From Candidatus Chisholmbacteria bacterium RIFCSPHIGHO2_01_FULL_52_32 (GTDB taxonomy: Bacteria > Patescibacteriota > Microgenomatia > UBA1400 > Chisholmbacteraceae): DNA of 64,000 bases. The position numbers and the translations under genes are program-made. The notes beneath the pieces are model-generated. The model searched no databases. It saw only the letters and a list, made by a program, of their open reading frames with translations, and was not told where the DNA came from. The stretch is from assembly GCA_001816585.1 (NCBI GenBank), contig MHCJ01000007.1, positions 2,062-66,061 on the forward strand. Reading direction: 5' to 3'. Shown in pieces: positions 21,642-64,000 of the stretch. Position 1 is the stretch's first letter. Every line of letters begins with the position of its first letter.

Positions 21642-22544
21642 TTGCGGGAACAAACGCTCTTTGTTATGCTCATTTTCGTGCAGTTAAAAACCCTCTCTCT
21701 GATCACGCCGGTCTTCAACGAACCGAAAATCCACGAGAACCTACCCGTCATTGATCGGGAGCTGACAAAAACCGGCCTTCCCTACGAAATTATTGCCGTG
21801 AACGATGGTTCCGACGCGGTCACAACCACCCGATTAAATAGCCTCTCCCTCCCAAATCTTCGAATCTACACCTATGCACAGAATCGCGGCAAAGGCTTTG
21901 CCCTCCGCTTCGGATTCGAACAATCTAGAGGATCACTCATCTGTCTCATGGATGCCGACTTACAACTCCATCCACAACAAATAGCCCTCTTCACAAACCT
22001 TGCCACACTCCTTAATGCCGATGTGGTGATCGGAAGCAAGCGCCACCCCCTCTCCAAAGTCGAGTATGGCCCCTACCGGCGAATGTACTCCTGGGGATAT
22101 CAGCAGCTCGTACGATTCCTGTTTAACCTCAACCTCACCGACACGCAGGTAGGTTTAAAGCTCTTCCGCCGCCATGTGCTTGAAGCCGTCATGCCGAGGT
22201 TAAGCATCAAGGCCTGGGCCTTCGACCTCGAAGTCTTAGTGGTTGCCAAACACCTCGGTTTCCACCGAATACTCGAAGCCCCAATCATCTTAGGCTGGAA
22301 ACCAGGGGAATCGCACATCAACTGGCGGGTTATTCCTGGAATGCTCCAGGATACCCTTGGGATTTTCTATCGCAAATATCTGCTTGGGTACTACAACCGC
22401 CCTCTGGAAACGCACCAGGAAGACAACCTCACGGTCGTTGAACATGAAACCGGTGAAACGGTAGAGACAATCCGGGAACCTGAACTCTTCCCGGAAAAAC
22501 CGCGCCCGACCAGCGGCATCATCTTCGCTGCCGGAGAGAAATAA
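21642..22544 (+). CDS. GT2 family glycosyltransferase (polyprenyl-phosphate sugar synthase-like)
   Basis: 300 aa; ITPVFNE and NDGSDA motifs, DXD (MDADL). Confidence 0.85.
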   Translation: MREQTLFVMLIFVQLKTLSLITPVFNEPKIHENLPVIDRELTKTGLPYEIIAVNDGSDAVTTTRLNSLSLPNLRIYTYAQNRGKGFALRFGFEQSRGSLICLMDADLQLHPQQIALFTNLATLLNADVVIGSKRHPLSKVEYGPYRRMYSWGYQQLVRFLFNLNLTDTQVGLKLFRRHVLEAVMPRLSIKAWAFDLEVLVVAKHLGFHRILEAPIILGWKPGESHINWRVIPGMLQDTLGIFYRKYLLGYYNRPLETHQEDNLTVVEHETGETVETIREPELFPEKPRPTSGIIFAAGEK

Positions 22545-22688
22545 GAGACCAGGCAATTGGCACCGGACACTCACAACCTATTTCTCTCTCATGTTACAAT
22601 CTCCCCGCAAGAGTAGCAGTCATCCATTTGCTATTTGCCATTAGCCATAAGCTATACGCTATAAGCTATCTGCAATCTGCATATTCCT

Positions 22689-24974: not shown

Positions 24975-25909
24975 AACAATCCACAGGTATCACAATCATC
25001 ATCCCCACGAAAAACGAACGAAAGAATCTCGGAAGACTCCTGAAAAGCATCCTTCAGAAACGATTACCCCGCGAGGTCATCGTCGTCGATAACCATTCAA
25101 CCGACGGCACGATACAGGTGGCAAAACGAATGTGGAACGACGCAACAAAGAAGGGAGGATACAAATTTTCGCCGCGAACACAGGCCAGGCTCTCAGCCTG
25201 GCTGGTTTCTCAAAAAAGAAAAAAAAGTGAGACTCCAGACCGTAGAGGAAAAGAATATATCGTAACCGACCTTCCTCAATTAACGCTCCTGTCTAAAGGC
25301 CCGGAGCGCTCAGCCCAGAGAAATGCCGGGGCAAGGATTGCCAAGGGAAGTCACCTGTTGTTTCTCGACGCTGATATGGAGATGACACCAACGTTGCTTC
25401 CCGAACTCCAACTCCTTGCAAAAAAAGGAGTCAAGGCAGCCAACCTGAAAGAGCTTGCCGTGGGGCACGATTTCTGGGGAAAAGCGATTGCGCTGGAGCG
25501 GAATTGCTACTGGGGTGACCCCATCCTGGAGGCTCCCCGCTTTATCGAAGCGAAACTTTTCCGTCATCTTGGCGGCTACGATTCTTCCCTGATCGCCGGA
25601 GAAGACTGGGATCTTGCCGAGCGTCTCAACCAAAACGGAACGCCAGTCGTCTACGCGAAAAGTCCCCTCCTTCATCATGAAGCGATGGGTTTCCTCCCCA
25701 ACATCAGACGGAAGTGGTACTATACCCACCATATCCGGCGCTACGCGAGAAAAAATCCCGGTCGTTTCCTGAAACAATCCGCTCCAAGAATGCGTCTGAA
25801 CCGCTATTGGGAGAACCGTCGAATGCTACTAAGATATCCGCTCTATACCCTCGCCTTTCTCCTCATGAAAGTCCTAATCTACGGTCGCTTTCGCTTGAGT
25901 AACAAATGA
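24971..25909 (+). CDS. GT2 family glycosyltransferase
   Basis: 312 aa; IIIPTKNE, VVDNHSTDGT, LDADME motifs; 4-bp overlaps on both sides. Confidence 0.8.
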   Translation: MKQSTGITIIIPTKNERKNLGRLLKSILQKRLPREVIVVDNHSTDGTIQVAKRMWNDATKKGGYKFSPRTQARLSAWLVSQKRKKSETPDRRGKEYIVTDLPQLTLLSKGPERSAQRNAGARIAKGSHLLFLDADMEMTPTLLPELQLLAKKGVKAANLKELAVGHDFWGKAIALERNCYWGDPILEAPRFIEAKLFRHLGGYDSSLIAGEDWDLAERLNQNGTPVVYAKSPLLHHEAMGFLPNIRRKWYYTHHIRRYARKNPGRFLKQSAPRMRLNRYWENRRMLLRYPLYTLAFLLMKVLIYGRFRLSNK

Positions 25910-28725
25910 AAGAAACAAAGAAAACTTTCCAGCGAGTGTACGCCCGCCGTCTCGAATCGGAGGGGGAAAAACGTACGCACCAGCGCTTCCAAAAGATCGT
26001 AAGCTTCTTTGGCAAAACCGCCAATCTCATCCTTCTCCTCGCAGCGTCGGTCGCAATCAGTCTCATTTGGCAACAACGTATCGCTACCCCCTACCTGTCT
26101 TCCCTACGGGCTGTCGGCGGGGATTACTTCAACGCCCTGACATACGCGGTATTCTTCGCCCGACACCATCCATTTCCCCCGACGGGTTGGATGCCATTTT
26201 GGTTCGGGGGGATACCGGTTATCGGCGGATATCCGAACCTTTTCTTCTATCTTATCCTTCCGATCACGCGCTTCTTCGATGTCCCGACAAGCATGGAGTT
26301 GACTTCGATTGTTTTTATCCTCCTCTACCTTATTGCAGCGCACTTCCTTTTCTGGGAAACCACCCGTAACCACCTTATCGCCCTCCTTTTTACCGGCATC
26401 GTCCTCGTCACTCCCGCAAGCTACTATGCGTTGACAGGAGAAGGCCTCGTAGTGGCTTCAGCAATGCAATGGCTCCTCCCGCTCACCTTCTTTTTCCTGA
26501 TCCGCTTCGTCAAGTTTCAAGACGGAACGATGCTTCTTGCGGCGGCGGTCTCAACGGGAATCGCGCTCATCATGCACCCGGGGGTTTCCGCCCTCATCGT
26601 TCTCGTCCCGGCAACGATATATCTTATGATCGCCGACTCCGGAGACCCCAAAGACGCGGCACACACCAGGCAATTGAGCCTCCTGAAACTGTCTGTGTGG
26701 GAGAAGTTGAAGACAAAACTCACCCACCTAACCCTCTATACCGGATTTGCTCTGTCTTCAGGCGCAATTGGCGTCTATACCCTACTCGTGCAGACGTTCC
26801 TTTCCGGTGGACCAGGATCTTGTGACAGCCCTCAGTGCTGGGGGGACTACCCGCCCCACCTGATCTGGTTTTCACCGCTTGCCCTCCTGCCGACGATCTT
26901 CCTGCCGGCAAGCCTCGTGGCATGGCGTATGCAGAAGTCGAGATTGAAAGAAATTATGGCACCGTTGGCCGCGCTCACCCCCCTCCTTCTCTACGTCGGC
27001 CTCGCCTATCTCCGTCGGATCGACTCACTCTCAAGCGCCCTTTTTCCCCGCAGACTCTTCTGGGCTATCACCCTCCTGACGCTTATGAGTATGGGTATTG
27101 CATTCCGGTATACCTTCAAAGCTTCAGCAAAGCTTGCGATCGCGGTACTGTCTATCTTCCTCATCACACTCTCGCTTTCCATTCCGTTCCTCCCCAAAGC
27201 CGTTCATTTTTCGTTACAAGACTACCTCAAGATTCCCAACTCCCTCCCCATGGGCGTTGAAAGCTACATCGTTCCCAAATACCAGACAATGCCGATTTCA
27301 GAAATCATTCCCCCTTGGCTCCCGATAAACGATGTCAATTGGCGGATGGATAGCATCCGCCCTGATTTTTTCGCATGGTGGAATACCATTGCCAGCCTTC
27401 CGTTGACCCGTGGTTATTCCAATGTGCCGACCAAGGAACATCTCGACTGGCTGTACTATCTTCAATCCTCCACCTTAATCCCGAATAATCCGGATGAACT
27501 AAGTTTGGAAACCCGGTATAACCGGGCCCTCTTTTTATTGGATGCGTACGGCGTCCGCTTCCTCCAGCATCCCGGAGGATCCATCGTCTACGAAGGCATT
27601 GCCTACGATCCGCTGCTGTTAAAAAACCGCGACTTAGTCAAAAAGTTTGAGCGGGTTCGGGAATGGAGTTTCGTGGAATTATCAGAAAAGCTCATCACAC
27701 CCGTCGTTTCTCCCACCAACGCCGCGCGGGTGATGGTGATCTCAGACCAGGGGGGGTATGAAACAATCCTCCGGGCAATTTCGCTCGAGAACCTCAACTC
27801 CACGGTCCTGATTCCCATCCAAGGCCCCCAGTCCATTGACAAAATTTCTCCGAAACTGGTTGAAGAGGCAGACGCCATCATCCTTTATCAATTCACCGGT
27901 TCCAGCTTCAGGACGCTCGAGGCATTTGTGGAGAATGGAGGCAAGGTCTTTATCGACATCGGCTCCCTGCAAAACTTACCGACTTCGGTCCCGAAGTTAT
28001 TCGGGGCAAAAAGCCTCCAAGTCTTTGACCAAGAAAGAATTTGGAAGGTCAAAATCCTGTCTCCCTCACCGCTGATGAAAGAGATTGACACCACGAAATT
28101 CTCCCCCCTTCTTTTTAACGAACATGCCTGGAGAATCGTTGCTCCGCCCTCAAAACAATTCCTCAAAGGAGAGATGGAAACGATCCTGACGCAAAACGAC
28201 ATCCCGGTCTTGGCAACCGGAAAGTTCGGGAAGGGATCCGTCATCTTCTCAGGCTTCAACCTCCCCTACCATATCGTGAATTACCAAAACGAAGAGGAGG
28301 CAAAACTCTTAAAGAACATCATCCTATCCCTGGTTCCCGAGAGCCTTGCGATCGGAGAATTCTCCGTCAACTGGACCGACCCAACCTTGATCGTAGCCTC
28401 CGCAACAGACGCCAAGGGAATCTATTTCAAACAAAACTATCACCCGGGATGGAAAGCAGCCGTCAACGGGAAGAAGACACAGGTTTTGAAGGCAGGGCTC
28501 GGATTCATGTATATCCCTTTCCCGAAAGAAAGCCAGACCAAAACCACGACACTCGACCTTGAGTTTCGCGGCAGTTTGGCAACCTGGGGCATTCCGGCGT
28601 TGAGCCTGGGAAGCATGATCGCCGCCGCCATTTTGGCGCTCAGTCAGTCTCCAATTAGGCTTCTGGGCCTTCTCTATTCGAAACTCTTCCTCAAAAGACT
28701 CAAATCCTGGTGGGCAAAAGACTAA
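25906..28725 (+). CDS. large GT-C-like polytopic membrane protein (YfhO-like) with a C-terminal extracytoplasmic domain
   Basis: 939 aa; about 13 N-terminal TM helices with GGDYFN and WFGGIP motifs, shared with 42835..45798 and 45932..48841. Confidence 0.8.
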   Translation: MKETKKTFQRVYARRLESEGEKRTHQRFQKIVSFFGKTANLILLLAASVAISLIWQQRIATPYLSSLRAVGGDYFNALTYAVFFARHHPFPPTGWMPFWFGGIPVIGGYPNLFFYLILPITRFFDVPTSMELTSIVFILLYLIAAHFLFWETTRNHLIALLFTGIVLVTPASYYALTGEGLVVASAMQWLLPLTFFFLIRFVKFQDGTMLLAAAVSTGIALIMHPGVSALIVLVPATIYLMIADSGDPKDAAHTRQLSLLKLSVWEKLKTKLTHLTLYTGFALSSGAIGVYTLLVQTFLSGGPGSCDSPQCWGDYPPHLIWFSPLALLPTIFLPASLVAWRMQKSRLKEIMAPLAALTPLLLYVGLAYLRRIDSLSSALFPRRLFWAITLLTLMSMGIAFRYTFKASAKLAIAVLSIFLITLSLSIPFLPKAVHFSLQDYLKIPNSLPMGVESYIVPKYQTMPISEIIPPWLPINDVNWRMDSIRPDFFAWWNTIASLPLTRGYSNVPTKEHLDWLYYLQSSTLIPNNPDELSLETRYNRALFLLDAYGVRFLQHPGGSIVYEGIAYDPLLLKNRDLVKKFERVREWSFVELSEKLITPVVSPTNAARVMVISDQGGYETILRAISLENLNSTVLIPIQGPQSIDKISPKLVEEADAIILYQFTGSSFRTLEAFVENGGKVFIDIGSLQNLPTSVPKLFGAKSLQVFDQERIWKVKILSPSPLMKEIDTTKFSPLLFNEHAWRIVAPPSKQFLKGEMETILTQNDIPVLATGKFGKGSVIFSGFNLPYHIVNYQNEEEAKLLKNIILSLVPESLAIGEFSVNWTDPTLIVASATDAKGIYFKQNYHPGWKAAVNGKKTQVLKAGLGFMYIPFPKESQTKTTTLDLEFRGSLATWGIPALSLGSMIAAAILALSQSPIRLLGLLYSKLFLKRLKSWWAKD

Positions 28726-28732
28726 GCCTTCA

Positions 28733-29854
28733 TTAGCGATTTTCAAAGAAAGTGACTTCCCGGTAATGCTTGAAGTTCTGCCGACCTCCCACATTCCTTC
28801 GCATCACCGCATCGTAGGTTCTCCGCCGGAAGAGGAAGTAATCAAGGACAATACTCCCAGGGTATACGGTTGCAAGCGAATGGAGGCTCCTGCCGGAGAA
28901 TTGGAAAACCTTGGTACGTAAAAATATTGGCAGATGCCAAACAAGCGCACCATAGGCTTTGAGAACACTTAAAACGAAAGAAAATCTTCGCTCGGAAAGA
29001 TAATAAAGAATCGATCCGATATCAAAGAGACATCGAAGAATAAACAGCGGAAAATAGGGCCATAGGGAATTGTGCTTCAGAACAAAATAGAGGTTGTTTC
29101 GATGATTCATATAGATCTTCCGCCCAAGATTACGATTGCTGGTATAGGACCCGTAATGGTAAACCAGGCTTTCTGGAACAGAAAAAATCCTGTATCCCCG
29201 TTCCCGAAGGCGAACACAGAGATCAATCTCCTCAAAGTAGGAAAAGAAGTACTCATCGAATCCGCCCATATCCCATAACGCCTGCGTTCGAATCGCAAAA
29301 CAGGAACCCGATGCCCAGGTAATCTCGCAGGGATCATCGTACTGGCCAATGTCCTTCTCGATGGAATCAAAGATCCGGCCCCTGGTAAATGGGTAGCCAA
29401 ACCTATCCAAAAACCCTCCGGCCCCGCCGCTGTAGTCAAAGTAGGCTTTGAGGATATTTGAGCGAAGCTTCGGTTGAACGGCCACAACCCCAGGATACCG
29501 TTCTAAAAAAGAAACCAAAGGAGTCAGCCAGCCACGGGTAACGATACAATCGTTATTGAGAAACACCAAAATTTTTCCACGTGCCTTGGCAGCTGCCAGG
29601 TTACTACCTCGTGCATAGCCAACATTGACAGGAAACTGGATGAACTGTAGGGTGAGAAACCGAAGTTTCGCAATACCCCTTTCCAAAAGTGCGCGCTCCT
29701 TCTCCTGGGAACCGTTATCAACCAGAATCACTTCAAAAGGGAGGGCTGTGGTACATTTGGCAAGGGCCCTAAGACACTCCACAGTCACCTCTGCCCCGTC
29801 GGCGAAGAGGACTATAATGCTGACCATCGGCGCGTGTCCGCGATGAGTTTCCAT
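28733..29854 (-). CDS. GT2 family glycosyltransferase
   Basis: 373 aa; VSIIVL, VDNGS, DXD (NNDCIV) motifs. Confidence 0.8.
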   Translation of the reverse strand: METHRGHAPMVSIIVLFADGAEVTVECLRALAKCTTALPFEVILVDNGSQEKERALLERGIAKLRFLTLQFIQFPVNVGYARGSNLAAAKARGKILVFLNNDCIVTRGWLTPLVSFLERYPGVVAVQPKLRSNILKAYFDYSGGAGGFLDRFGYPFTRGRIFDSIEKDIGQYDDPCEITWASGSCFAIRTQALWDMGGFDEYFFSYFEEIDLCVRLRERGYRIFSVPESLVYHYGSYTSNRNLGRKIYMNHRNNLYFVLKHNSLWPYFPLFILRCLFDIGSILYYLSERRFSFVLSVLKAYGALVWHLPIFLRTKVFQFSGRSLHSLATVYPGSIVLDYFLFRRRTYDAVMRRNVGGRQNFKHYREVTFFENR

Positions 29855-55216: not shown

Positions 55217-55236
55217 TCTCTATTCGTAAATCATAA

Positions 55237-55300: not shown

Positions 55301-56278
55301 CCATTCTATCGTCTTCTTCAGTCCCTCTCGCAAGGGCACCCTCGCTGTAAACCCAATCTTCTCCTTTGCCTTTCTCGTGTCGCAGTTCCTTCGTGGTTGG
55401 CCATTGGGCCTGGTCGTATCGAAAATAACCTGGGCCTTGCTTCCCGAAAGCTCAACAACAAGCTTTGCCAAGTCACCAATCCGGATCTCCTCTTCGGTCC
55501 CGATATTTACCGGGTCTGGTTCGGGATACTTCTCTACAGCCTCCATTAACCCCCGGGCAAAATCCGAAACATAAAGAAACGACCGCGTCGGTGACCCATC
55601 TCCCCAGACTACCACCGGATTCTCTCCAGAAACGACCCGCCGGATAAGCGCGGGGATGACGTGCGAAGTCCGAGGATCAAAATTATCTCTCGGTCCGTAG
55701 CCGTTGTATGGTCGAACGATACTGATTTTCATACCATACTCCTCGGCATAGCTCCTCGCCAGAATCTCCCCCATCCGCTTCGCCCATCCGTAACCGTAGT
55801 TGGTGGGTTCCGGCTCATCTAACAATCCCTCCGACTCTGGAGTCGGAATGGTGCAAAAACGGGGGTACACGCAGGCAGAACTTACAAACTGCATACGGGG
55901 AACTTGAGCCAACCGCGCAGCCTCAAACATCGTCATCGCCATTGCCAGGTTGTCCCGAAGCATCGTCGCGGGGTGTGTAGAGTTGTATCCGATCCCTGCT
56001 ACCCGCGCCGCCAGGTGAAATACCACGTCCTTATTGCGGCAGAGCGAAATGACTGTAGGGCGTGTAGACGAAAGATCAACTGAATGATAGCGGATCGAAG
56101 GATTCTTAAGATCAAGAAACCGAACCCCACTTGGTTTCTCCCTCCCCACAACCGTAACCCCGGCCCCCTGTGTCAAAAGTATCTCGGTAAGGTGAGAACC
56201 GACGAACCCATTCCCTCCGGTTACCAACACCCGCTTCCCCTTCCAAAAGCTTTTCCTGGTCTTCGCTTTTTTTCCCAT
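55271..56278 (-). CDS. NAD-dependent sugar epimerase/dehydratase (SDR family, GDP-fucose synthase-like)
   Basis: 335 aa; VLVTGGNGFVGSHL Rossmann motif; catalytic Y..xK region; a candidate TATAAT -10 box about 20 nt upstream. Confidence 0.85.
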   Translation of the reverse strand: MGKKAKTRKSFWKGKRVLVTGGNGFVGSHLTEILLTQGAGVTVVGREKPSGVRFLDLKNPSIRYHSVDLSSTRPTVISLCRNKDVVFHLAARVAGIGYNSTHPATMLRDNLAMAMTMFEAARLAQVPRMQFVSSACVYPRFCTIPTPESEGLLDEPEPTNYGYGWAKRMGEILARSYAEEYGMKISIVRPYNGYGPRDNFDPRTSHVIPALIRRVVSGENPVVVWGDGSPTRSFLYVSDFARGLMEAVEKYPEPDPVNIGTEEEIRIGDLAKLVVELSGSKAQVIFDTTRPNGQPRRNCDTRKAKEKIGFTARVPLREGLKKTIEWYRKSVGLSA

Positions 56279-56468
56279 ACCTTATGTTGACCCAATTATA
56301 CTAACAATTATCTTCACGAGTTTCGCACCAATAACAACCAGAGGAGAGCGCGGAACAAATTTGCGCGAGGAGCTAGGCCAGGCTGAAAGCCTGGCTGGCG
56401 ATCAAAAAACCAGGAAGCTAAGCAAAACCGCGCCATAGCGACCAAGCAAATTTCTGTTACGCGATCTC

Positions 56469-58736
56469 CTACCCTCTATCTGCATAAAACTGCGAAACTC
56501 GCGATCTTATCCGTTTCTCTTTCCAAACGAGAAGAAGACAAATAACAATGGTAAAACCGGATATCAAGGCACCAAGATAAACAAGGCGCGGTCGAAATAC
56601 ATACTCCACCGCATGGACCCCCGAAAGAACCGGAACGGACCGGAACGTCCCTTGATACTTTCCCATTTCAACCCTCTGCCCATCCACAAACACTTCCCAT
56701 CCCGGATAAACACTGTCCGCCAACACCAACACCCCTTGCCGATCCGCCTCTACCGCAACAACCACCCGCTCGGGCTGATTGACGAGAATTTCCGCCTCTC
56801 CTGCCGATTCCCCGGAATGATCAACCACTCTTGAGCGAGGCAGCAACTGACTACTGCGCACAATCCCTTGCTCCGAAAGGAAATACGCAACGGACAACTG
56901 GTTAAGCTTTTCCGCTTCAACCTCTTGCAGGCCAACCTCATTGAGTCTCAAAGAAGAAATTTTATCCCCCCTCAGATATTTTGCGTAAGCGCTAAGCACA
57001 AAACTGGCGTATCCGTTGGGCGTCGGCAAGCCATAAACCATATTCCAGTTCAAAGCCAAGTCGGAAAGCCTCCGATTCAGTTCCCGATAACTTCGCCGTT
57101 CTTCTGGGGTATAGAACGTGGCAGCAAATGGCGGTCCAATGGCCATGTTCTCCCAGTAATTCCCCAGTCCGCTAAACGGAACAGAGTCTTGATAACTCAA
57201 GAATCGCTCAGAAGGCGCCAAAACGTTCTGAAGTTGCCGTCCTGGTTCCGATTCAATCCGAACAAGCTGTCGCGGCATGGTAAATACGTATCGTGAGTTG
57301 AAAAAGAGAAGATCAAGAAACACAAGTCCAACAAAAAACCAATACTTTTTGCGAAAGAGAACGATGATACTAAGACCAAAAAGGAGGCTCGCCAAAACCA
57401 TATTTGCCGAAACGGTCCCCACGATCACTTGATCCCGTTCAAAAGTATGAAATGTTGAAAACGGCCGCCAGAAAAGACCAAAACCAAACCGGCCGACCAG
57501 AAAGAAAACAATCCCAACCGCCCACATAAATCCAGCCATAATGAGAAGTCTCCTCGCGGCGACGAACGAGAGCCCTCGCTTTTTCACCTCATCAAAAGCA
57601 ATGCCTCCACAAACTGCCATCGACAACGAAAACGGCAAAAGCGCCTCAGCTGGACCTCGGAAAACCCGAAAAAAGGGAATGAGGGTAAACAATATCTGAT
57701 AGATCGGGGTGTATCGCCCCAGAGCCAAAATAAGCGAAGTACACGCCGCCCCCAGGAAAAACAGGAAAAGTCTTCGCTTGGGAGTCTCTCTTCTTAAAAA
57801 AATGCGCTTCGCCGAAAGAAAAAGGATAACGAAGGTCAAGATTCCAAGATATCCGGTGTTATCCGCCACGTGTCGCCAAGCAGGACCCCACGTCATTCCA
57901 ACTTGAGGTTGGTCAAACAAATTCGGTAAGAACAGACGCAGGAGAAGCACCGGGTGAAGCGAGTCGCCGGTCGCCGTCACAAAATCCATTGAGCTTCTCG
58001 TTGATAATCTAGCAAGCTCAAGCGCCGGCAACACCACAACAGCAGTCACCCCGAACGCGAGCCCAAAAAGGAGAAGGACCGGTTTAAGTCTATTCCAACT
58101 TCTCACCTTTGAGAAGAATAGCCAGTAAGAAAAAAGAAGGACCAGCGTGTAGAGAACCGGCTGCGGATGTCCTCCGAAAATCTGCAGTGCCAAAGAAAAA
58201 GCAGCAACCACCGACCAGAGTGTTGAACCCCTTGCGATTGCCTTGTAAAAGGCGAGAAATGTAAAGGGTAACCAAATGCTACTTGATAACAACGGCAGAT
58301 AGCTCGTGTAATGAAGTATGGTCGCGCTGAACATGAACGTCATGGCCGAGGAGAAAGCCGCAATTCGTGACATCCCCAATTCCTTGACGAAGAGGAAGAA
58401 AGAGACACCGGCCAAGAACACGCTCATGATCGTTACAACGGTCAACGCCCAAAAAGGATCAAGCACCAGGAAGAAAAGGCTGAAAGGGTAAAACACAGCC
58501 GTGGAGATGTCCGCAAGGAACGGTATTCCGGCAAAAAGGTACGGATTCCAAAGCGGCAGAACTCCTTCCCGCAAACGAACCGCAGCATAAATGGCATTGG
58601 GTAATTTCAGGGATAAATTGTCTCCGAAAAACAGCACCTCACCCCGAAACACCGGATAAAAAAACACAGCCGTCGCCAGTGCTAAAACCACACCGACGAG
58701 AAGATTAGGTTGTAATCCCAATCGAAAACGCTTCAT
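56469..58736 (-). CDS. YfhO-family GT-C membrane protein
   Basis: 755 aa; N-terminal motif block FYPVFRGEVLFFGDNL...LWNPYLFAGIPFLAD is characteristic of YfhO. Confidence 0.85.
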   Translation of the reverse strand: MKRFRLGLQPNLLVGVVLALATAVFFYPVFRGEVLFFGDNLSLKLPNAIYAAVRLREGVLPLWNPYLFAGIPFLADISTAVFYPFSLFFLVLDPFWALTVVTIMSVFLAGVSFFLFVKELGMSRIAAFSSAMTFMFSATILHYTSYLPLLSSSIWLPFTFLAFYKAIARGSTLWSVVAAFSLALQIFGGHPQPVLYTLVLLFSYWLFFSKVRSWNRLKPVLLLFGLAFGVTAVVVLPALELARLSTRSSMDFVTATGDSLHPVLLLRLFLPNLFDQPQVGMTWGPAWRHVADNTGYLGILTFVILFLSAKRIFLRRETPKRRLFLFFLGAACTSLILALGRYTPIYQILFTLIPFFRVFRGPAEALLPFSLSMAVCGGIAFDEVKKRGLSFVAARRLLIMAGFMWAVGIVFFLVGRFGFGLFWRPFSTFHTFERDQVIVGTVSANMVLASLLFGLSIIVLFRKKYWFFVGLVFLDLLFFNSRYVFTMPRQLVRIESEPGRQLQNVLAPSERFLSYQDSVPFSGLGNYWENMAIGPPFAATFYTPEERRSYRELNRRLSDLALNWNMVYGLPTPNGYASFVLSAYAKYLRGDKISSLRLNEVGLQEVEAEKLNQLSVAYFLSEQGIVRSSQLLPRSRVVDHSGESAGEAEILVNQPERVVVAVEADRQGVLVLADSVYPGWEVFVDGQRVEMGKYQGTFRSVPVLSGVHAVEYVFRPRLVYLGALISGFTIVICLLLVWKEKRIRSRVSQFYADRG

Positions 58737-58805
58737 ACTTACCCCTTTGAACGCAGCAATTCAAGATGCCTACCAACCTATGGAGGAACCCAAGCAATGA
58801 GTAAT

Positions 58806-59001
58806 AAAAAATCCCCCTTTGAGCGGAGCTATTCGAGAACATGCGAAAGCGAACACTGTTAAAAAGCGATCAACTGTCTGACGAGCGCTCGACGCGAAGG
58901 AGTTTGATCGCATAGCGTGAGCGAAGCAGGTTCCCGAAAGAACGCTCATGGGGTGCCCTTTCTTTCGACGCTTTCTTTGGGCAAGCAAAGAAAGCGTCAC
59001 C
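58806..59001. ncRNA. copy 2 of the conserved ~190-nt structured non-coding element
   Basis: collinear with 1771..1957 with compensatory changes in two stems; sits between DegT and YfhO genes (both minus strand); a short extra copy of the 5' block CCCTTTGAACGCAGC lies at 58742-58757. Confidence 0.4.
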
Positions 59002-59024
59002 AGTTTGGATGAGCAAAGAAATGG

Positions 59025-60233
59025 TCAATGACCAAAATACCTCCCAAACACCTTTCCAATATACTCAACATCATCCTTCGTTATTTCAGGATGACAGCCG
59101 ATATAAAACCCGTTTTGGTTAAGGTGTTTCGCGACCGGATAATCATCCTCAATATGCCCCCACATCCGCTCGTACACCGGCTGGTTGGTCAGGGGCAAAA
59201 GGTAGCGCGTCTCAATCCCGTTCTTCTCAAGAAAAAGGATAAGTTCATCCCGATCCACACCTGCCTTCACCACGATGGGGTACATCATAAACACGTGCTC
59301 CGCGCTTGGGCGCTTTGTTGGCAACTGAAGATATTTTGAAAACCGCTTGAGCACCCGGGTCAACGCCCGTGCATTCCGCTTTCTTAAGGCGACAATCTCC
59401 CGCCACCGCCGCATTTGCCCGAGGCCCAAAGCACTCTCAAGCTCCGTAGCTCGGTAACTGTACCCGACATCGAGAAAATTGAAACGCCTGGCCACGATCG
59501 TAAACAGCTGGTTCAAACTTCGGAATTTCGTGTCATCCGGGTTCGTATAAATCCCATCTCTGCCGTGGTTGTAGAGGCTCTTTATGGAAACCGCCAATTC
59601 CGGATCGTTGGTCACCGCAAATCCCCCAACGCCAGTCACGAGGATATGCGCAGCGTAGGTTGAGAAACACCCCACTTCTCCGAAGGAACCGACGGGCTTC
59701 CCCCTGTACCTGGCAAACATCGTCTCACAGGAATCCTCAATCATCCGAAGGTTATACCGCTTCTTCAAACCCATAAGCTCATCCATATCACACGGACAGC
59801 CGCACAGGTGAACCGGCATGATCGCAACCGTTCGCTCCGTAATCTTCTTCTCTGCCTCTGCCGCATCCATCTCAAAATACACCGGATCAACATCAACCAG
59901 AACCGGAGTCAACCGGTTCTCAAGAATCACGTTAACCGAAGCCACAAACGTCACCGCCGGAACCAAAACCTCCATCCCGTCTTCCCAGCCGTACTGTTTC
60001 TTCATCGCATGAAGCCCGACCTGCAAAGCCGATGTCCCGGAGTTGCAGAATAGGGCATATCTGACCTTGTGGGCCCGCGCAAACGCCCGCTCGAACCGAT
60101 TGGTGAAGTGCCCATATGAAAGTCGATTATCATCCAAAGCTTGATTAACGTACCGTTTTTCCAACTCCGAGATATTAACAGCCCCAACTCCGATAAACCG
60201 TCTTTTTTTAATTCCAGCTACTCTTCCTGGCAT
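59025..60233 (-). CDS. DegT/DnrJ/EryC1/StrS-family PLP-dependent sugar aminotransferase
   Basis: 402 aa; SGTSAL motif; active-site lysine region FSTYAAHILVTGVGG; typical length. Confidence 0.9.
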   Translation of the reverse strand: MPGRVAGIKKRRFIGVGAVNISELEKRYVNQALDDNRLSYGHFTNRFERAFARAHKVRYALFCNSGTSALQVGLHAMKKQYGWEDGMEVLVPAVTFVASVNVILENRLTPVLVDVDPVYFEMDAAEAEKKITERTVAIMPVHLCGCPCDMDELMGLKKRYNLRMIEDSCETMFARYRGKPVGSFGEVGCFSTYAAHILVTGVGGFAVTNDPELAVSIKSLYNHGRDGIYTNPDDTKFRSLNQLFTIVARRFNFLDVGYSYRATELESALGLGQMRRWREIVALRKRNARALTRVLKRFSKYLQLPTKRPSAEHVFMMYPIVVKAGVDRDELILFLEKNGIETRYLLPLTNQPVYERMWGHIEDDYPVAKHLNQNGFYIGCHPEITKDDVEYIGKVFGRYFGH

Positions 60234-60266: not shown

Positions 60267-63233
60267 ATGAAAGAAGATAGTCATAAGTGTCGATGGATGT
60301 TGTATGATTGGAAGTCTAATCGGCAAAGTACTCCGATGGAAAAATCCCACTTTAAAAAAAACCCAGGGATAAGATCACCCAACATCAATCTCACTCACCT
60401 TGCTATCTTGCTTGTAGTGGCGTTGGCATTACTTTCTCCCTTGCTTCTCCCAGGTTTTCCCCAAACCCACGACGGCGATCAACATTTCGTTCGCACCGCC
60501 CATTTCTTCCATGCCGTGAAAGAAGGGAATCTCCTCCCTTCTTGGGCCGGAACGCTAAACAGCGGATTCGGATCCCCTGTTTTCCTCTATAATTGGCTCC
60601 TCCTCTATTACCTCTCAATCCCCTTCCTCCTGTTGAATATCCCGGTCGTCTCAACGATCAAGCTCCTCATTACTGCCTCATTCTTCCTCTCAGTGCTCGG
60701 ATTTTTCCTTTGGGTAAAATTCCTCTATAACAGCCGCTCCGCCTTCGTTGCCAGCCTGTTTTACCTTACCTCTCCGTACCATCTCTACAACATCTACACC
60801 CGCGGCGCCTTCGGCGAAGTCATGGCATTAAGCCTCCTCCCCTGGCTTTTTTTCTCAATCTCACGCCAGCTGTTTTCTGGAGTATTCAAATATTTCCTGG
60901 CAACTACAGCGCTCCTTGTCATGCTCATCCTCGCCCACAATCCGACCGCCCTTGTAGCTATTCCTCTCCTTGCCGCATACTCACTGGTGCTTTCCTGGAA
61001 AAGCAGAGAAAAAACGGTTCATGTCTTTCTGACCATCCCTCTCGCCCTCTTTCTAACCGCGTTCTTCTGGCTCCCGGCAGCGGTCGAAATGCCCTACACC
61101 AAGCTCCCTCAGGCGGTGGCCAGTCTTTATGAGAGCCATTTCCTTGAAGCTGATCGCTTCGGAACACCACAGAAAGCAACGGAACTAACAATCACAACCT
61201 TTCCACAATTGAGTCCAACGAAACCGTTCCTTCTCCCGTTATTTCGCATTACCTACATCCTTTTTTCGCTTGTCAGTGCAGTCGGAATCGCCCAAGTCGC
61301 CGCAGCCACAATCGCCATCTTCATCGTAACTAAAAACCGCAATAACAATCAGAACCGGAAAGTTGAACTCTTCTTTATCGCAACCTTCATCATTGCTTTC
61401 TTTCTCGCAACCAGTCCTTCAGCTCCTATCTGGCGCTTGATCCCCATTCTCCCCCCACTTCTCTATCCATGGAGGCTCCACGGGATAGCATCACTTGCTG
61501 CCGCACTGCTATCCGCAACCCTTATACGAACTCCCAGAAAGACAAGAGTGGCACTGATAGCCCTTTTGGCCGCGACCGCAATCCTCCTTGTCACTCGGGC
61601 TCTCCCTGCACAGAAAACCTTTCCGACGTTTACCGATGCTTCCCTCGTAAGAAGCCAGGAAAGTACCGACAGTACGGGGGTCTATTTACCTCGCTGGGCT
61701 CCTGCTCTCAGCGATCTGCCCTCCCAACCTCCACAGGATATTGCTTTTGTAAAAGACGGGAAACTCGAAACGCTCCTCATGGAACGGGGCGTTTCTCGCC
61801 TGCGATTCCGCGTCAAGAGCAAAAAAGCGACCGAAATCATCGTCAACACCTTTTTCTTCCCGGGTTGGGAAGGCTTCATCGATCGCATTCCAACGCAAGT
61901 CAGCCCCAGTGGCCAGGGGAATATCGCCATCTCTATACCAGAAGGTGAGACTGAGGTGGAACTTCGATTCACGAAAACCGAAATCCGAAAAACAGCAATA
62001 GCTGTCACAAACCTGACATTACTGGCCCTGGGAATAGGCGTGATTTTCCGCGTCTTATCTCGGGTTAACAATAAAAAGAGGCTCGGAGCTGTCCTAATGC
62101 TCATCCTCACAACGATCCTGGGTAGCGAGGCCGCAACCAGACTTGTCATCGGCGATTCATTCGCCACCACTTGCTTCAAGCGTGATCAGATCCTCCACCA
62201 CATCCCCAAATTGAATGGAACGTGCTCCTATTCGGATCCCCACAGTTCCGAAGCGAAGGTGAACGTCCGCTTCTCAAGCGTTGGAACCCGCGGAGAAGAA
62301 ATCACAATTCCCAAACCCCTGGATACATATCGAATCCTTCTCCTCGGAGACTCAACCACCGCAGCCATCAACGTGAACTACGAAGACGCCTTCGGGGAAA
62401 AACTCGAACGGCTGCTCCAACTAACATTCCCCAACAAAACAATTGAGGTGGTAAACGCCGGTGTTCCTTCTTACTCGGGACTTCTTGAGTATCTCTACCT
62501 TCGGGAGCGCGGCTTAACCCTCGAACCCGATCTGGTAATTACAAACTTTAATTCCACGGATGTCCACGATGACGCCCGCTATTTCCATCTCGCGAACATC
62601 GCACCGGATGGCACGGTGTTGACGGTCAGTGAGATAACACCGGATACTCCGCTCATAAAAAAACTCCATTGGGCCATCTTCAATCGCTCGCGTCTCTACG
62701 GACACCATCTCCAATTTTGGCTTATCGGACTCAAGGATAGATTACTCCCTCAAAAGCCTCTCGTACAAACCACAGAAAAAACCGAATTCGGTCAGTACGA
62801 AGCCGACTTCCTCGTCGCCCTCAGAGAAGATGTGCGACCGAACTACCAGGCCATTTGGCACTGGCCTCGTAAAAGTCTCAAGCTCCTCCACGCGCTCACA
62901 AAGAAACACAACATTCCCCTTGTCATCTCCCTTTTCCCCTTTCCACTGCAGGTGAATGGCCGGGAATGGATAAGCAGAGAGCGCATGGGTTTTGAACTCG
63001 GAAAAACCTATTCCACCAGGGACCTTGAGATGATGGAATCCCTGGCAAAAGAGGAAGGCATACCGGTCGTCAATTCTGTCGAAGCCTTCAGGAACTCACA
63101 GGAATTCCCCTTGTTCTTCCCCGAGGACATTCACTTCACTCCCGCCGGGCACGCGGTTTTTGCCCAAACGATAGCCACGTACCTGTTGGAACACAGAAGA
63201 CAGCTTGGGCTTCCGCCCACACCCCAACTATGA
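60267..63233 (+). CDS. polytopic GT-C/PTPS-related-like membrane domain fused to a C-terminal SGNH/GDSL-hydrolase-like domain
   Basis: 988 aa; N-terminal segment HDGDQHF...LPSWAGTLNSGFGSPVFLY with about 12 TM helices; C-terminal LLLGDSTT (GDS block) and a DxxH-like end. Confidence 0.7.
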   Translation: MKEDSHKCRWMLYDWKSNRQSTPMEKSHFKKNPGIRSPNINLTHLAILLVVALALLSPLLLPGFPQTHDGDQHFVRTAHFFHAVKEGNLLPSWAGTLNSGFGSPVFLYNWLLLYYLSIPFLLLNIPVVSTIKLLITASFFLSVLGFFLWVKFLYNSRSAFVASLFYLTSPYHLYNIYTRGAFGEVMALSLLPWLFFSISRQLFSGVFKYFLATTALLVMLILAHNPTALVAIPLLAAYSLVLSWKSREKTVHVFLTIPLALFLTAFFWLPAAVEMPYTKLPQAVASLYESHFLEADRFGTPQKATELTITTFPQLSPTKPFLLPLFRITYILFSLVSAVGIAQVAAATIAIFIVTKNRNNNQNRKVELFFIATFIIAFFLATSPSAPIWRLIPILPPLLYPWRLHGIASLAAALLSATLIRTPRKTRVALIALLAATAILLVTRALPAQKTFPTFTDASLVRSQESTDSTGVYLPRWAPALSDLPSQPPQDIAFVKDGKLETLLMERGVSRLRFRVKSKKATEIIVNTFFFPGWEGFIDRIPTQVSPSGQGNIAISIPEGETEVELRFTKTEIRKTAIAVTNLTLLALGIGVIFRVLSRVNNKKRLGAVLMLILTTILGSEAATRLVIGDSFATTCFKRDQILHHIPKLNGTCSYSDPHSSEAKVNVRFSSVGTRGEEITIPKPLDTYRILLLGDSTTAAINVNYEDAFGEKLERLLQLTFPNKTIEVVNAGVPSYSGLLEYLYLRERGLTLEPDLVITNFNSTDVHDDARYFHLANIAPDGTVLTVSEITPDTPLIKKLHWAIFNRSRLYGHHLQFWLIGLKDRLLPQKPLVQTTEKTEFGQYEADFLVALREDVRPNYQAIWHWPRKSLKLLHALTKKHNIPLVISLFPFPLQVNGREWISRERMGFELGKTYSTRDLEMMESLAKEEGIPVVNSVEAFRNSQEFPLFFPEDIHFTPAGHAVFAQTIATYLLEHRRQLGLPPTPQL

Positions 63234-64000
63234 ACCAGAAAAAGAATCAAGCAAACCAAAACCAAAAGCGGTACAGAAAACAGTTCCTCATGGAAAAAAA
63301 ACTGGCAAAGTCGTTGCTTTCCGCAAACGCACACCAAAGGCGGCGCCTCTACCGACAGGTCTACGATGAGTTTTTTCGTAAGGTACCCTTTCCGAACGAG
63401 AGCGAGAAGGACCGGATAGGTTCAGGTTTTGTATCCGGACACGTCAAACTCCTCAACCACTTTTTAAAACCTGACTCGACATTTCTGGAAATCGGTCCGG
63501 GTGACTGTTCGCTTTCCCTCGCCGTAACAAAGAGTGTAAGGAAGGTCTATGCCGTGGATGTTTCACCAAAACCATCAAGAAGCCTACACAAACCCAAAAA
63601 CTTTCATCTGATCGTCGCAGACGGCGTGAGTGTCCCGGTACCCAAAGCGAGTGTCAATATAGCATTCAGTAGCCAAGTCCTGGAGCACATCCATCCCGAC
63701 GACGCATTGAGTCATCTCAAGAACGTCCACCGGGCCCTCACCGAAACAGGTTTGTATATCGCTATCACCCCCAACCGGCTCTGGGGGCCCCACGATGTTT
63801 CGCAGTTCTTCGAAGACAAAGCAGAAGGGCTTCATCTCAAGGAATACACGGTCACCGAGTTGGAGAAACTCTTTAAAACCGCGGGGTTCTCAACAGTTCA
63901 ACTTTTCATCGAAGTCCGGGGGAAAGTCATTCGCTACCCCACCTTCCCGGTCAAGGTAGTTGAATGGTGTATACAATTACTGCCCCCCTCCGTGCAAAAA
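63230..64000 (+). CDS. class I SAM-dependent methyltransferase (3'-truncated by the window edge)
   Basis: open frame from ATG 63230 (alternative 63290) to the window end; FLEIGPGDCS motif I, VLEHI, LTETGLYIAITPN; overlaps the upstream stop (ATGA). Confidence 0.65.
   Translation, partial: MNQKKNQANQNQKRYRKQFLMEKKLAKSLLSANAHQRRRLYRQVYDEFFRKVPFPNESEKDRIGSGFVSGHVKLLNHFLKPDSTFLEIGPGDCSLSLAVTKSVRKVYAVDVSPKPSRSLHKPKNFHLIVADGVSVPVPKASVNIAFSSQVLEHIHPDDALSHLKNVHRALTETGLYIAITPNRLWGPHDVSQFFEDKAEGLHLKEYTVTELEKLFKTAGFSTVQLFIEVRGKVIRYPTFPVKVVEWCIQLLPPSVQK

Follow-up and report, generated by a model that had tools for sequence, protein, structure and literature searches.

We analysed a 64,000-nucleotide stretch of DNA (hereafter the window) from Candidatus Chisholmbacteria bacterium RIFCSPHIGHO2_01_FULL_52_32 (assembly GCA_001816585.1, contig MHCJ01000007.1, positions 2,062 to 66,061) and found that its part from 21642 to 64000 is occupied by a dense island of glycosylation genes. 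We consider this region, with a probability of about 0.65, a modular island for glycoconjugates of the cell surface in a monoderm bacterium belonging to the Candidate Phyla Radiation (CPR; Microgenomates group), for which we infer a mechanism below. According to the open reading frame (ORF) map, 28 genes lie back to back in about seven blocks of alternating strand. Pfam and hydropathy scans recognised among them six GT2 enzymes, five GT4 enzymes and eight polytopic GT-C-like proteins, i.e., 19 glycosyltransferase (GT) genes among 28 contiguous genes. This is far beyond chance, and related loci show the same assortment again. The division into several transcription units, the self-contained pairs that some of the genes form and the mosaic flanks all favour a modular island organised around a conserved core.

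The island is larger than the window coordinates suggest, since in locus L007 it extends beyond base 64000 by 10 kb or more. At a size of at least 52 kb, it contains nine recognised GT-C-like proteins and one polytopic protein without a family match, about 24 glycosyltransferase modules and around ten methyltransferases, and makes up ~4.5% of the 1.16 Mb contig MHCM01000003.1 (1,158,385 bp, GCA_001816955.1). The latter, to which the window is assigned by exact sequence matches, belongs to a Rifle-aquifer Candidatus Chisholmbacteria metagenome-assembled genome, and its locus L002 is 100% identical to window positions 35932-58841; moreover, the window sequence recurs in independent ENA and Logan assemblies.

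GT-C-like membrane proteins

All eight polytopic proteins of the window have 8-11 transmembrane (TM) helices predicted in a Kyte-Doolittle scan:

25906-28725, plus strand: YfhO-like GT-C paralogue, 939 amino acids (aa); PF10131 28.6 bits, cut-off 26.4
37035-38405, plus strand: PMT_2 (GT39/ArnT-like) GT-C, 456 aa, 9 TM helices (PMT2-456); PMT_2 41.0 bits, cut-off 26.1
42835-45798, minus strand: YfhO-like GT-C paralogue, 987 aa, second of a tandem pair; PF10131 27.8 bits, cut-off 26.4
45932-48841, minus strand: YfhO-like GT-C paralogue, 969 aa, first of the tandem pair; PF10131 46.3 bits
48879-50036, minus strand: small PIG-V/Gpi18-like GT-C, 385 aa, 8 TM helices; Mannosyl_trans2 24.9 bits, cut-off 22.4
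51051-52790, minus strand: PMT/PMT_2 (GT39/ArnT-like) GT-C, 579 aa, 9 TM helices (PMT-579); PMT_2 54.6 bits, PMT 48.9 bits
56469-58736, minus strand: YfhO-family GT-C, 755 aa, 10 TM helices including a C-terminal one (YfhO-755); Pfam YfhO 36.7 bits, cut-off 28.5
60267-63233, plus strand: PF10131-like GT-C (residues ~45-595) with a membrane-anchored SGNH/AlgX-like domain (~600-988), 988 aa, 11 TM helices

Seven of these proteins reach or exceed the Pfam gathering score of PF10131, PMT_2, PMT, YfhO or Mannosyl_trans2, which we take to be families of the GT-C clan, and three of them do so narrowly. The 988-aa fusion stays below the PF10131 (PTPS_related) cut-off (22.2 vs. 26.4 bits); its homologues are annotated as PF10131, PF09586 and PF13231. 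In the NCBIfam scans, the large GT-C proteins gave no match except for the faint similarity of the 755-aa protein to PgfM1/PgfM2 (PgfM1: 31.7 bits vs. a cut-off of 1400).

The 939-, 969-, 987- and 755-aa proteins are built alike, with a bundle of TM helices followed by a large soluble domain and one more TM helix at the end. For the 939-aa protein, the TM scan delimits about nine N-terminal helices, a large extracytoplasmic domain and a C-terminal helix, and the soluble outer domain takes up ~470 aa in each of the 939-, 969- and 987-aa proteins. The AlphaFold2 model of the 969-aa protein, built on an alignment of 30 sequences (pLDDT 85.9, pTM 0.80), displays the same layout: helices extend to residue ~441, residues 480-915 form a domain of mixed alpha/beta type, and a TM helix spans 918-940. 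As the comparison of the 969-family profile with the sequences of solved structures yielded nothing useful, fold comparison was needed. A Foldseek search of the PDB placed STT3, AftD, AglB, PglB and ALG12 at the top (probability 1.00, E 2e-7 to 1e-4; TM-score on the target at most 0.50), while the soluble domain resembled the non-catalytic C-terminal parts of GH42/GH164 enzymes and STM3548-like proteins. The model of the 385-aa protein (pLDDT 89.8, pTM 0.90; alignment of 35 sequences) gave GT-C enzymes as all 26 of its top PDB matches, including AftB, ALG9, STT3, ArnT, PglB, PIG-U, Pmt1/2 and GPI-MT-I (E 1e-3 to 0.14, TMq 0.35-0.51).

In GT-C enzymes, the catalytic or metal-binding carboxylate sits in the first extracytoplasmic loop, after TM1. 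An acidic residue is found shortly after TM1 in all eight proteins of the island, and its position makes it a candidate catalytic residue. In the 969-aa protein, D57 lies just after TM1 and is kept without exception by 30 homologues and across the three paralogue lineages; in the 385-aa protein, D59 is invariant in 35 homologues. Both PMT-like proteins carry a DE motif at this site (RPDEAY in the 579-aa and WLDESI in the 456-aa protein). The aligned Asp, His and Arg residues are also retained in the 939- and 987-aa paralogues, where the Asp of the latter is part of GVDLL.

The tandem YfhO-like proteins (969 and 987 aa) share 34% identity over their full length (BLASTP E 7e-168), and the 939- and 969-aa proteins 25% over 921 aa (E 8e-67). 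By hhalign, the 969-family profile matches YfhO-755 with 91% probability over 162 columns, comprising the first loop and TM2-6, and the 988-aa protein with 20% probability only. Directly after its last TM helix, the YfhO-like family has a conserved cytoplasmic tail, WWEKE(D/E)E. We also noted giant metagenome proteins (P0250, P0254, P0256 and P0263; 1093-1116, 1670 and 3329 aa) that are composed of two to three concatenated PF10131-type GT-C domains.

Taken together, the Pfam family scores, the GT-C matches of two models and the acidic residue in 8/8 proteins bear out the original prediction of at least eight GT-C-like polytopic proteins, and a GT-C-like nature of the large membrane proteins is supported at the level of sequences and models. 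The two proteins announced as GT39/ArnT-like do pass the PMT_2/PMT cut-offs and carry the DE motif. Other details of the prediction had to be corrected. The three YfhO-like proteins are indeed paralogues, yet the WFGG motif ascribed to all three is present in the 939-aa (residue 99) and 969-aa (residue 83) proteins only, the 987-aa protein having IAFNGEP instead. The protein described as a classic YfhO is above the cut-off of this family, but its match is confined to the last 70 residues. In turn, the supposed GT87-like protein is the 385-aa one, which matches PF04188 (PIG-V), as do many of its 777 homologues by annotation; the GT87 enzyme PimE appears only at rank 30 of its fold search (E 0.23).

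The predicted fusion of a GT-C protein with an SGNH domain was recovered as well, both halves being recognisable in the 988-aa protein. Its SGNH half scores 35.9 bits with Lipase_GDSL_2 (cut-off 32.9) and 25.7 bits with ALGX. Given the 11 predicted TM helices, the SGNH/AlgX-like domain should be located outside the membrane. In an exhaustive phmmer search of 1.84 billion representatives, we obtained 24,842 relatives of this protein at E <=1e-3. Among the best 150 of them, both halves occur only in the protein's own cluster; the membrane half alone is present in 136, mostly stand-alone proteins of ~540 aa, and the TM-anchored SGNH half alone in 11. In the related loci L012 and L049, the SGNH protein is encoded by a separate gene. 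The fusion suggests that O-acylation or de-acylation might be coupled to sugar transfer outside the cell.

Cytoplasmic enzymes and the recurring core

The remaining genes of the island encode predicted glycosyltransferases of the GT2 and GT4 families, sugar-tailoring enzymes and methyltransferases, the latter including class I S-adenosylmethionine (SAM) enzymes:

21642-22544, plus strand: GT2a, weakly PgfS/ArnC-like, 300-aa ORF (called as 21666-22544, 292 aa); Glycos_transf_2 73.3 bits
22689-24974, plus strand: GT4-GT4 fusion a, 761 aa, two complete GT-B modules; Glycos_transf_1 in two stretches, 237 bits
24971-25909, plus strand: GT2b, 312 aa, start overlapping the stop of the preceding gene; Glycos_transf_2 71.4 bits
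28733-29854, minus strand: GT2c, called gene 364 aa (28733-29827); Glycos_transf_2 69 bits
30056-31213, minus strand: GT4b, called gene 380 aa; Glycos_transf_1 95.3 bits
31316-32254, plus strand: RmlD-like NAD(P)-dependent sugar reductase, called as 300 aa from 31352; RmlD_sub_bind 197 bits
32316-33347, plus strand: class I SAM methyltransferase MT-a, 343 aa; Methyltransf_11 65.6 bits
33307-34155, plus strand: GT2d, called as 264 aa from 33361; Glycos_transf_2 36.8 bits vs. 23.3, the weakest of the six GT2
34231-36090, plus strand: GT4-methyltransferase fusion, 619 aa; Glycos_transf_1 at 201-353, Methyltransf_11 at 404-500
36090-37010, plus strand: FkbM-family methyltransferase a, 306 aa; Methyltransf_21 64.5 bits, NCBIfam fkbM_fam 98.1 vs. 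37.7 bits
38471-40798, plus strand: GT4-GT4 fusion b, 775 aa, core member; Glycos_transf_1 in two stretches, 171.6 bits
40795-42021, plus strand: GT4c, 408 aa; Glycos_transf_1 77.8 bits
42028-42720, minus strand: methyltransferase MT-b, 230 aa, core member; Methyltransf_23 79.5 bits
50084-50962, plus strand: FkbM-family methyltransferase b, called as 270 aa from 50150; Methyltransf_21 43.5 bits, fkbM_fam 72.8 bits
52912-53622, minus strand: GT2e, short soluble GT-A, 236 aa (called as 231); Glycos_transf_2 99.5 bits
53751-54485, plus strand: methyltransferase MT-c, called as 237 aa from 53772; Methyltransf_23, Methyltransf_11
54479-55216, minus strand: GT2f, short soluble GT-A, 245 aa (called as 217-237); Glycos_transf_2 44.8 bits
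55271-56278, minus strand: epimerase/reductase of the short-chain dehydrogenase/reductase (SDR) type, GDP-fucose-synthase-like, 335 aa; Epimerase 199 bits, NCBIfam Fcl 220 vs. 500 bits
59025-60233, minus strand: DegT/DnrJ/EryC1 pyridoxal-phosphate sugar aminotransferase or dehydratase, 402 aa; Pfam 302 bits
63230-64000, plus strand: methyltransferase MT-d, truncated where the window ends (full length 280 aa); Methyltransf_23, Methyltransf_11

The Pfam matches reproduced most of the predicted inventory: the six GT2 genes (one of them weakly, at 36.8 bits), the five GT4 genes with three fusions (two GT4-GT4 and one GT4-methyltransferase), and the sugar aminotransferase, epimerase and reductase, which correspond to the DegT, SDR epimerase/reductase and RmlD-like enzymes. 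Of the eight methyltransferases claimed, we counted seven domains, while the presence of two FkbM-type enzymes was confirmed by NCBIfam. MT-d is complete in locus L007 (10397-11239). The RmlD-like reductase scores 197.9 bits with NCBIfam rmlD (cut-off 224), and the DegT enzyme 234 bits with RfbH and 223 bits with PseC, both below the cut-offs. Two cases of internal relatedness were detected by BLASTP: GT2d matches GT2c (E 2e-17), and GT4c is a paralogue of the C-terminal half of GT4-GT4 fusion b (39% identity over 390 aa).

With regard to donor supply, GT2e and GT2f are candidate polyprenyl-phosphate-sugar synthases by sequence similarity, and GT2a is perhaps a third. The five best NCBIfam matches of GT2e are all such synthases (AglJ, dolichyl-phosphate hexose transferase, ArnC, PpgS and PgfS), although below the cut-offs (115 vs. 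325 bits for AglJ). GT2f similarly matches AglJ (95.5 bits) and dolichyl-phosphate hexose transferase (56.7 bits), both sub-threshold, and the best matches of GT2a are PgfS and ArnC, far below the cut-offs. The remaining three GT2 enzymes look like ordinary MftF/EpsD-type transferases, as exemplified by GT2b, which is MftF/EpsD-like below the NCBIfam cut-offs. The original prediction of several short GtrB/CsbB-type enzymes thus holds in that two to three GT2 proteins resemble polyprenyl-phosphate-sugar synthases, albeit sub-threshold, but not in architecture: for GT2e and GT2f no TM helix was predicted in the hydropathy scan, so that the short enzymes are without the C-terminal anchor of GtrB/CsbB. 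GT2e (52912-53622, minus strand) adjoins PMT-579 (51051-52790) on the same strand, and GT2f shares the same-strand block 54479-60233 with the SDR enzyme, YfhO-755 and DegT.

To place the island among its relatives, we collected 35 related loci from genome and metagenome scans; the 16 loci of at least 12 kb were labelled by BLASTP against the window proteins. In these 16 loci, the recurring core consists of a pair of 950-1000-aa YfhO-like proteins, a GT4-GT4 fusion of ~780 aa, a methyltransferase of ~230 aa and, usually, another GT4. The YfhO-like pair is tandem or near-tandem in 13/13 informative non-redundant loci, with a third gene intervening in L009 and L026, and the 969-aa family, like the core itself, is present in Gottesman-, Woese- and Chisholmbacteria. 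Homologues of GT4-GT4 fusion b (780-793 aa, 40-42% identity) adjoin the YfhO-like pair in the relatives, and MT-b homologues of ~230 aa are found in most related loci. The flanks vary from locus to locus and include PMT_2-like proteins, DegT, SDR enzymes, GT2, extra methyltransferases and other polytopic proteins. The density of GT-C genes in the window is not unique, as locus L026 encodes seven polytopic proteins in 22.9 kb. Three loci from metagenome-assembled genomes (L010, L011 and L012) are titled 'uncultured Gammaproteobacteria', yet they are typical Microgenomates-type loci, whose YfhO-like pair, GT4-GT4 and methyltransferases share 36-41% identity with the window, and these labels are probably wrong.

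Locus L049, from a closer relative found in a metagenome (60-66% identity), illustrates how the core and its flanks part ways. It retains the order PIG-V-like, YfhO-like, YfhO-like, MT-b, and its flanks are entirely different, with a stand-alone SGNH protein and heptose-type nucleotide-sugar genes. Hence, a core conserved and flanks mosaic in 16 loci plus L049 agree with the mosaic gene content among relatives that the original prediction had proposed to look for. In L049 (5901-8772), a frameshift near position 7040 breaks the gene orthologous to that of the 969-aa protein into two ORFs, which may denote a pseudogene or a sequencing error. This frameshift is not located at a repeat or homopolymer and, therefore, provides no evidence for phase variation.

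Beyond the window end, locus L007 contains the remainder of MT-d and encodes another PMT_2 protein (576 aa), one GT2 enzyme, two further methyltransferases, a B12-binding radical-SAM enzyme and a Wzx/MOP flippase, as well as a 522-aa ORF with 7 TM helices (L007 11257-12825) that has no family match. The Wzx-type flippase is positioned ~9 kb past the window end and matches the NCBIfam O-glycosylation flippase model with 124 bits, below the cut-off. Neither the window nor the 10 kb downstream of it yielded a recognisable chain-length regulator. Two small ORFs with 4 TM helices at the other end of the window (146-628, minus strand, and 3421-3879, plus strand) have no Pfam match.

Proposed pathway and alternative explanations

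In the pathway that we propose, the RmlD-like and Fcl-like SDR enzymes and DegT would tailor nucleotide sugars into 6-deoxy and amino-deoxy sugars, from which the five GT4 (seven GT-B modules) and the three ordinary GT2 enzymes would assemble an oligosaccharide or polymer on polyprenyl phosphate at the inner face of the membrane. The assembled glycan would be O-methylated by at least seven SAM methyltransferases, and the GT4-methyltransferase fusion suggests either coupled transfer and methylation or chain capping. The lipid-linked product might then be exported by the downstream Wzx-type flippase. GT2e, GT2f and perhaps GT2a would load single sugars onto polyprenyl phosphate; once flipped, these would be transferred at the outer face by the 8-10 GT-C enzymes via the acidic residue of the first loop. 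Such transfer outside would extend or branch the exported glycan, and the fused SGNH/AlgX-like domain could add or remove O-acyl groups outside the cell. GT2e and PMT-579 may constitute a self-contained pair, like ArnC/ArnT, Ppm1/Pmt, CsbB/YfhO or GacI/GacL, and GT2f with the SDR enzyme, YfhO-755 and DegT a similar Arn- or Pgf-like pair.

Extracytoplasmic transfer from lipid-linked donors, as predicted initially, seems the most reasonable reading because two synthase-like GT2 share a transcription unit with a GT-C gene. Methylated and amino sugars, also anticipated, can fairly be expected from the tailoring genes, and 6-deoxy sugars likewise. The ~470-aa outer domains of the three YfhO/PF10131-type enzymes favour a polymeric acceptor; the candidate acceptors comprise a wall glycopolymer, a lipoglycan, an S-layer, a pilin and a lipoprotein. 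To a single linear pathway we prefer several modules that serve one surface acceptor or a small number of them, and the ~7 transcription units with their synthase and GT-C pairs would fit several modules equally well as one branched polymer. The size of the island and its recurring core point to a costly, lineage-diversified surface glycan, which in ultra-small cells could plausibly determine attachment to a host, susceptibility to phages or the integrity of the cell.

The closest known counterparts are the multi-component transmembrane glycosylation systems established in Firmicutes, one variant of which, GacI/GacK/GacL, combines a Wzx flippase with a GT-A that is soluble (PMC8035078). As in CsbB/GtcA/YfhO, GtlA/GtlB, Csd and GacI/J/K/L (PMC8035078, PMC5836110), a GT-A gene stands beside a polytopic GT-C gene in the island, and both share the YfhO-type architecture, in which a large outer domain lies between a TM bundle and the last TM helix. 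In these systems, the large GT-C enzymes carry outer carbohydrate-binding domains (PMC8035078), and YfhO-type enzymes glycosylate teichoic acids (PMC5836110, PMC8035078) as well as Ser/Thr-rich protein regions (PMC12041528). The TM-less GT2e and GT2f together with the downstream Wzx fit the soluble GT-A variant, i.e., GacI/GacK/GacL. Yet, the island differs from the Firmicutes systems in several respects. It has 8-10 GT-C genes instead of one to three scattered pairs, its three largest enzymes, which have no characterised relative in their family, belong to PF10131 and not to the YfhO Pfam family, and no teichoic acid is known from its CPR host. Furthermore, neither a GtrA/GtcA-type flippase nor a GacJ-like partner was found in the island; the 288-nt spacer at 58737-59024 holds only short, insignificant ORFs.

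Streptococcal Pgf and GtrB/PgtC2 O-glycosylation (PMC12041528) likewise combines a GT-A, an epimerase and a YfhO-type GT-C with extracytoplasmic action, which for the island is our inference. In contrast to Pgf, however, the island proteins score far below the cut-offs, and there are many more glycosyltransferases and methyltransferases. The Arn pathway comprises the aminotransferase ArnB, the GT2 ArnC and the GT-C ArnT. Its counterpart in the island would be the same-strand block 54479-60233 with DegT, SDR, a short GT2 and a GT-C; ArnC and PpgS, the latter of the mycobacterial PpgS/Rv3779 system, are among the best, sub-threshold matches of GT2e. Unlike the Arn pathway, the island is without a formyltransferase, a deformylase and an ArnE/F flippase, and belongs to a monoderm CPR cell without lipid A. 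With the GT-C batteries of Corynebacteriales (EmbA/B/C, AftA-D, MptA-C and PimE), the island shares many presumed outer GT-C enzymes with large outer domains, though the likeness is at the fold level only, and the island clusters its GT-C genes with cytoplasmic GT4/GT2 genes and Wzx. Polymannan O-antigen and S-layer systems (E. coli O8/O9a WbdA-D; Geobacillus WsaE) use multi-domain GT4 enzymes and terminating methyltransferases. As a lead only, we note that the core joins a two-module GT4, further GT4 enzymes and methyltransferases, including a GT4-methyltransferase fusion; in contrast to WbdA-D/WsaE, no ABC exporter (Wzm/Wzt), WbdD-like kinase or coiled-coil ruler was recognised in the island.

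Neither the enzyme kinds nor the general logic is new; novelty lies in the scale of the island, in the GT-C pair, which is conserved and uncharacterised, and in the GT-C::SGNH fusion. Patescibacteria are usually portrayed as stripped down in metabolism and have been described as having reduced polysaccharide metabolism (PMC7137472), the presence of '29 genes of glycosyl transferases' was mentioned in passing for one Microgenomates genome (PMC7143001), and the protein families enriched in Microgenomates are mostly hypothetical membrane proteins (PMC6744442). We found no description of the island or its core in the literature consulted, and the CPR reviews and protein-family surveys among it are silent on glycosylation; the surface biology of CPR bacteria appears essentially unstudied. 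Concrete targets for study would be the uncharacterised GT-C family, with its good structural model and candidate catalytic Asp, and the GT-C::SGNH fusion.

Several observations weigh against our reading of the island as a surface glycoconjugate locus. Neither in the window nor in the 10 kb downstream did we recognise a priming phosphoglycosyltransferase, a Wzy polymerase, an LCP ligase or an ABC exporter, and the same holds for a GtrA-type flippase (by Pfam in the window). The polyprenyl-phosphate-sugar synthase assignment comes from sub-threshold matches only, the TM-scores of the fold matches are modest (0.3-0.5), the E-values of the 385-aa protein are weak (1e-3 and worse), and the structure models cover two of the eight GT-C-like proteins (969 and 385 aa). 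In the NCBIfam scans of all GT, GT-C and methyltransferase proteins, no equivalog exceeded its cut-off, with the FkbM domain as the sole exception; therefore, no sugar or linkage can be named. Lastly, expression and joint action of the island genes are presumed.

Among the alternatives, it is possible, though in our view unlikely, that the locus is a general protein O-glycosylation machine decorating Ser/Thr/Pro-rich S-layer proteins, pilins or lipoproteins, an explanation that partly overlaps with the surface glycoconjugate one. Actinobacterial Pmt and streptococcal PgtC2/PgfM1 are known to glycosylate proteins. Two island proteins match PMT/PMT_2 and bear the DE motif, the sole NCBIfam matches of YfhO-755 are PgfM1/PgfM2, and PgfS is the best match of GT2a, while the unit of GT2f, epimerase and YfhO-755 resembles the pgfS-pgfM1-pgfE-pgfM2 operon and the downstream flippase fits the 'O-glycosylation flippase' model best. 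YfhO-type enzymes can O-glycosylate Ser/Thr-rich disordered regions (PMC12041528), and secreted proteins or lipoproteins with Pro/Thr-rich linkers are encoded in the window (4729-7065 and 10131-11276). These similarities, however, all lie far below the family cut-offs, the candidate acceptor proteins are encoded 10-17 kb away with nothing linking them to the island, and 13 Leloir GT modules and more than seven methyltransferases go beyond the requirements of a monosaccharide or short O-glycan system. Moreover, a polymer acceptor is a better match for the large outer domains found in the three YfhO-like enzymes (fold search; PMC8035078). A more doubtful alternative is a mycobacterial-style outer assembly line, where GT-C enzymes, in the manner of Emb, Aft, Mpt and PimE, polymerise and branch a lipoglycan or wall polysaccharide outside the membrane with polyprenyl-phosphate sugars as donors, and the tandem pair works as a heterodimer (as EmbA-EmbB or Pmt1-Pmt2). 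Paired GT-C enzymes such as EmbA-EmbB are known in Corynebacteriales and, to our knowledge, it is mainly from this group that an outer assembly line of such kind is otherwise known. It would account for 8-10 GT-C proteins with large outer domains in one island, for AftD, AftB, EmbB and PimE among the fold matches, for the YfhO-like pair in all 13 informative non-redundant related loci and for candidate catalytic residues kept in both pair members. Yet, the likeness to Emb and Aft enzymes is seen at the fold level only, the heterodimer is proposed by analogy, the many cytoplasmic GT4/GT2 enzymes and the Wzx flippase point to much of the glycan being built inside, and only two to three candidate donor synthases would have to serve 8-10 GT-C enzymes. 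In its broadest form, equally speculative, the main surface glycopolymer of Microgenomates would be built largely outside the membrane by the lineage-typical, uncharacterised 950-1000-aa PF10131/YfhO-type pair, possibly a heterodimer by analogy with EmbA-EmbB or Pmt1-Pmt2, with accessory GT-C modules exchanged among lineages. If so, the methylated glycan might give episymbiont-like cells a species-specific surface identity that bears on host attachment or phage evasion.

The original prediction went further and combined the island with repeat-tract switches into a variable surface-glycan system, in which short tandem repeats would act as on/off or volume switches of individual glycosyltransferases. 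The repeats and arrays concerned are listed below, as found by tandem-repeat search and, for the three arrays, by hairpin folding:

30439-30470, within the minus-strand gene GT4b: heptamer tract, ATTTGTA x4.6
31224-31275, no strand: perfect heptamer tract, GCTATTC x7.4, in the 102 nt that separate the divergent GT4b and RmlD-like genes
50991-51036, no strand: pentamer tract, CCTCT x9, in the 88 nt left between FkbM-b and PMT-579, whose 3' ends converge here
32247-32309, no strand: palindromic 8-mer array, (ATTGTTNN)n...(NNAACAAT)n, between the RmlD-like gene and MT-a; z -3.1
38413-38493, no strand: palindromic 8-mer array between PMT2-456 and GT4-GT4 fusion b; hairpin z -3.4, alignment
45811-45895, no strand: palindromic 8-mer array between the two YfhO-like paralogues; hairpin z -3.5, alignment

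Such a role appears highly improbable. Twelve further contigs of the same or a near-identical population, all consensus assemblies, jointly cover positions 15906-64000, and every covered tract except CCTCT is invariant in length across the contigs spanning it. The CCTCT tract differs by one unit, the corresponding 5-nt gap between L001 and the window being the sole indel in 22.9 kb; however, the tract lies between convergent 3' ends, where there is neither a promoter nor a reading frame for it to gate. The GCTATTC tract is of equal length in L014 and L015, which span it, and the in-gene heptamers (GT4b and the GT4-methyltransferase fusion) are unchanged even in contigs with 5-14 single-nucleotide polymorphisms (SNPs). 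What speaks for switching is the occurrence of heptamer or pentamer tracts in many spacers, among them GCTATTC x7 in a divergent promoter spacer, and within two GT genes, the single unit by which one tract differs between two assemblies, and the mosaic gene content between species; minority length variants may also hide in consensus assemblies. On the other hand, the tandem 7-nt repeats of the island spacers (22624-22669, 31224-31275, 42719-42815 and 55227-55254), whose unit differs per site, have similar counterparts outside the island (12722-12744, 14711-14743 and 18162-18195; mnmA, an ATP-grasp gene and a site beside the 16S gene), the coding homopolymers reach A8 at most, and three of the supposed tracts are in fact the palindromic arrays between co-directional genes. 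The claim of a phase-variable system was, therefore, not sustained. The heptamers had also raised the idea of a cyanobacterial origin, given their likeness to STRR-like repeats of cyanobacteria; it was dismissed because exact protein matches assign the window to the Candidatus Chisholmbacteria genome. The breaks of Logan contigs at two tracts may mean that the repeats are at least as long as the assembler k-mer, and we counted them neither way.

The three 8-mer arrays fold into AU-rich hairpins, that at 32247-32309 with -18.1 kcal/mol, and the 8-mer pattern has 16 matches vs. 3.3 expected, a number reached in 0/100 shuffles. They look like intercistronic stem-loops or operator-like elements, judging from their sequence and position, and not like slippage switches. 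In searches with a stricter three-unit pattern, only L006, L014 and L015 of the same or a near-identical population were matched, and not the loci of more distant relatives. A promoter and terminator scan of 48-64 kb gave the same counts as shuffled sequence and was uninformative. L018, an ENA assembly, differs from the window by seven SNPs, six of which are crowded into 46 nt of the 3' end of GT2a (22337-22382), possibly through recombination of a small patch or as an assembly artefact.

Surroundings of the island

Upstream of the island, the window contains parts of the rRNA region:

1166-1238, minus strand: tRNA-Ile-GAT
12833-14347, minus strand: 16S rRNA gene

The two genes are 11.6 kb apart, and the window holds no 23S gene. 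Between them, the segment at ~4.0-12.6 kb has a G+C content of 0.56-0.60 vs. ~0.50 elsewhere and ORFs without a Pfam match, which are signal-peptide/lipoprotein-like with acidic and Pro/Thr-rich low-complexity linkers. These proteins could be candidate acceptors of O-glycosylation, or the segment could represent an insertion into the rRNA operon.

Directly upstream of GT2a and divergent from it, the cluster at 15974-21601 comprises ATP-grasp genes (two RimK-like ones, one encoding 486 aa and a PF14397 'sugar-transfer associated' one, whose product has a C-terminal protease-like tail) and a gene for a 7TM_transglut membrane protein. We considered this ATP-grasp/7TM-transglutaminase-type cluster as a part of the island and rejected it, as it is absent beside the YfhO-like core in every related locus; from its gene content, it is a possible peptide-ligase system.

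In some Microgenomates genomes, the GC skew is reported to run in one direction (PMC7143001). In the window, the GC skew is negative in 32/32 consecutive 2-kb segments regardless of gene strand, and stronger where the genes are on the plus strand, while the AT skew is mostly positive over positions 1-64000.

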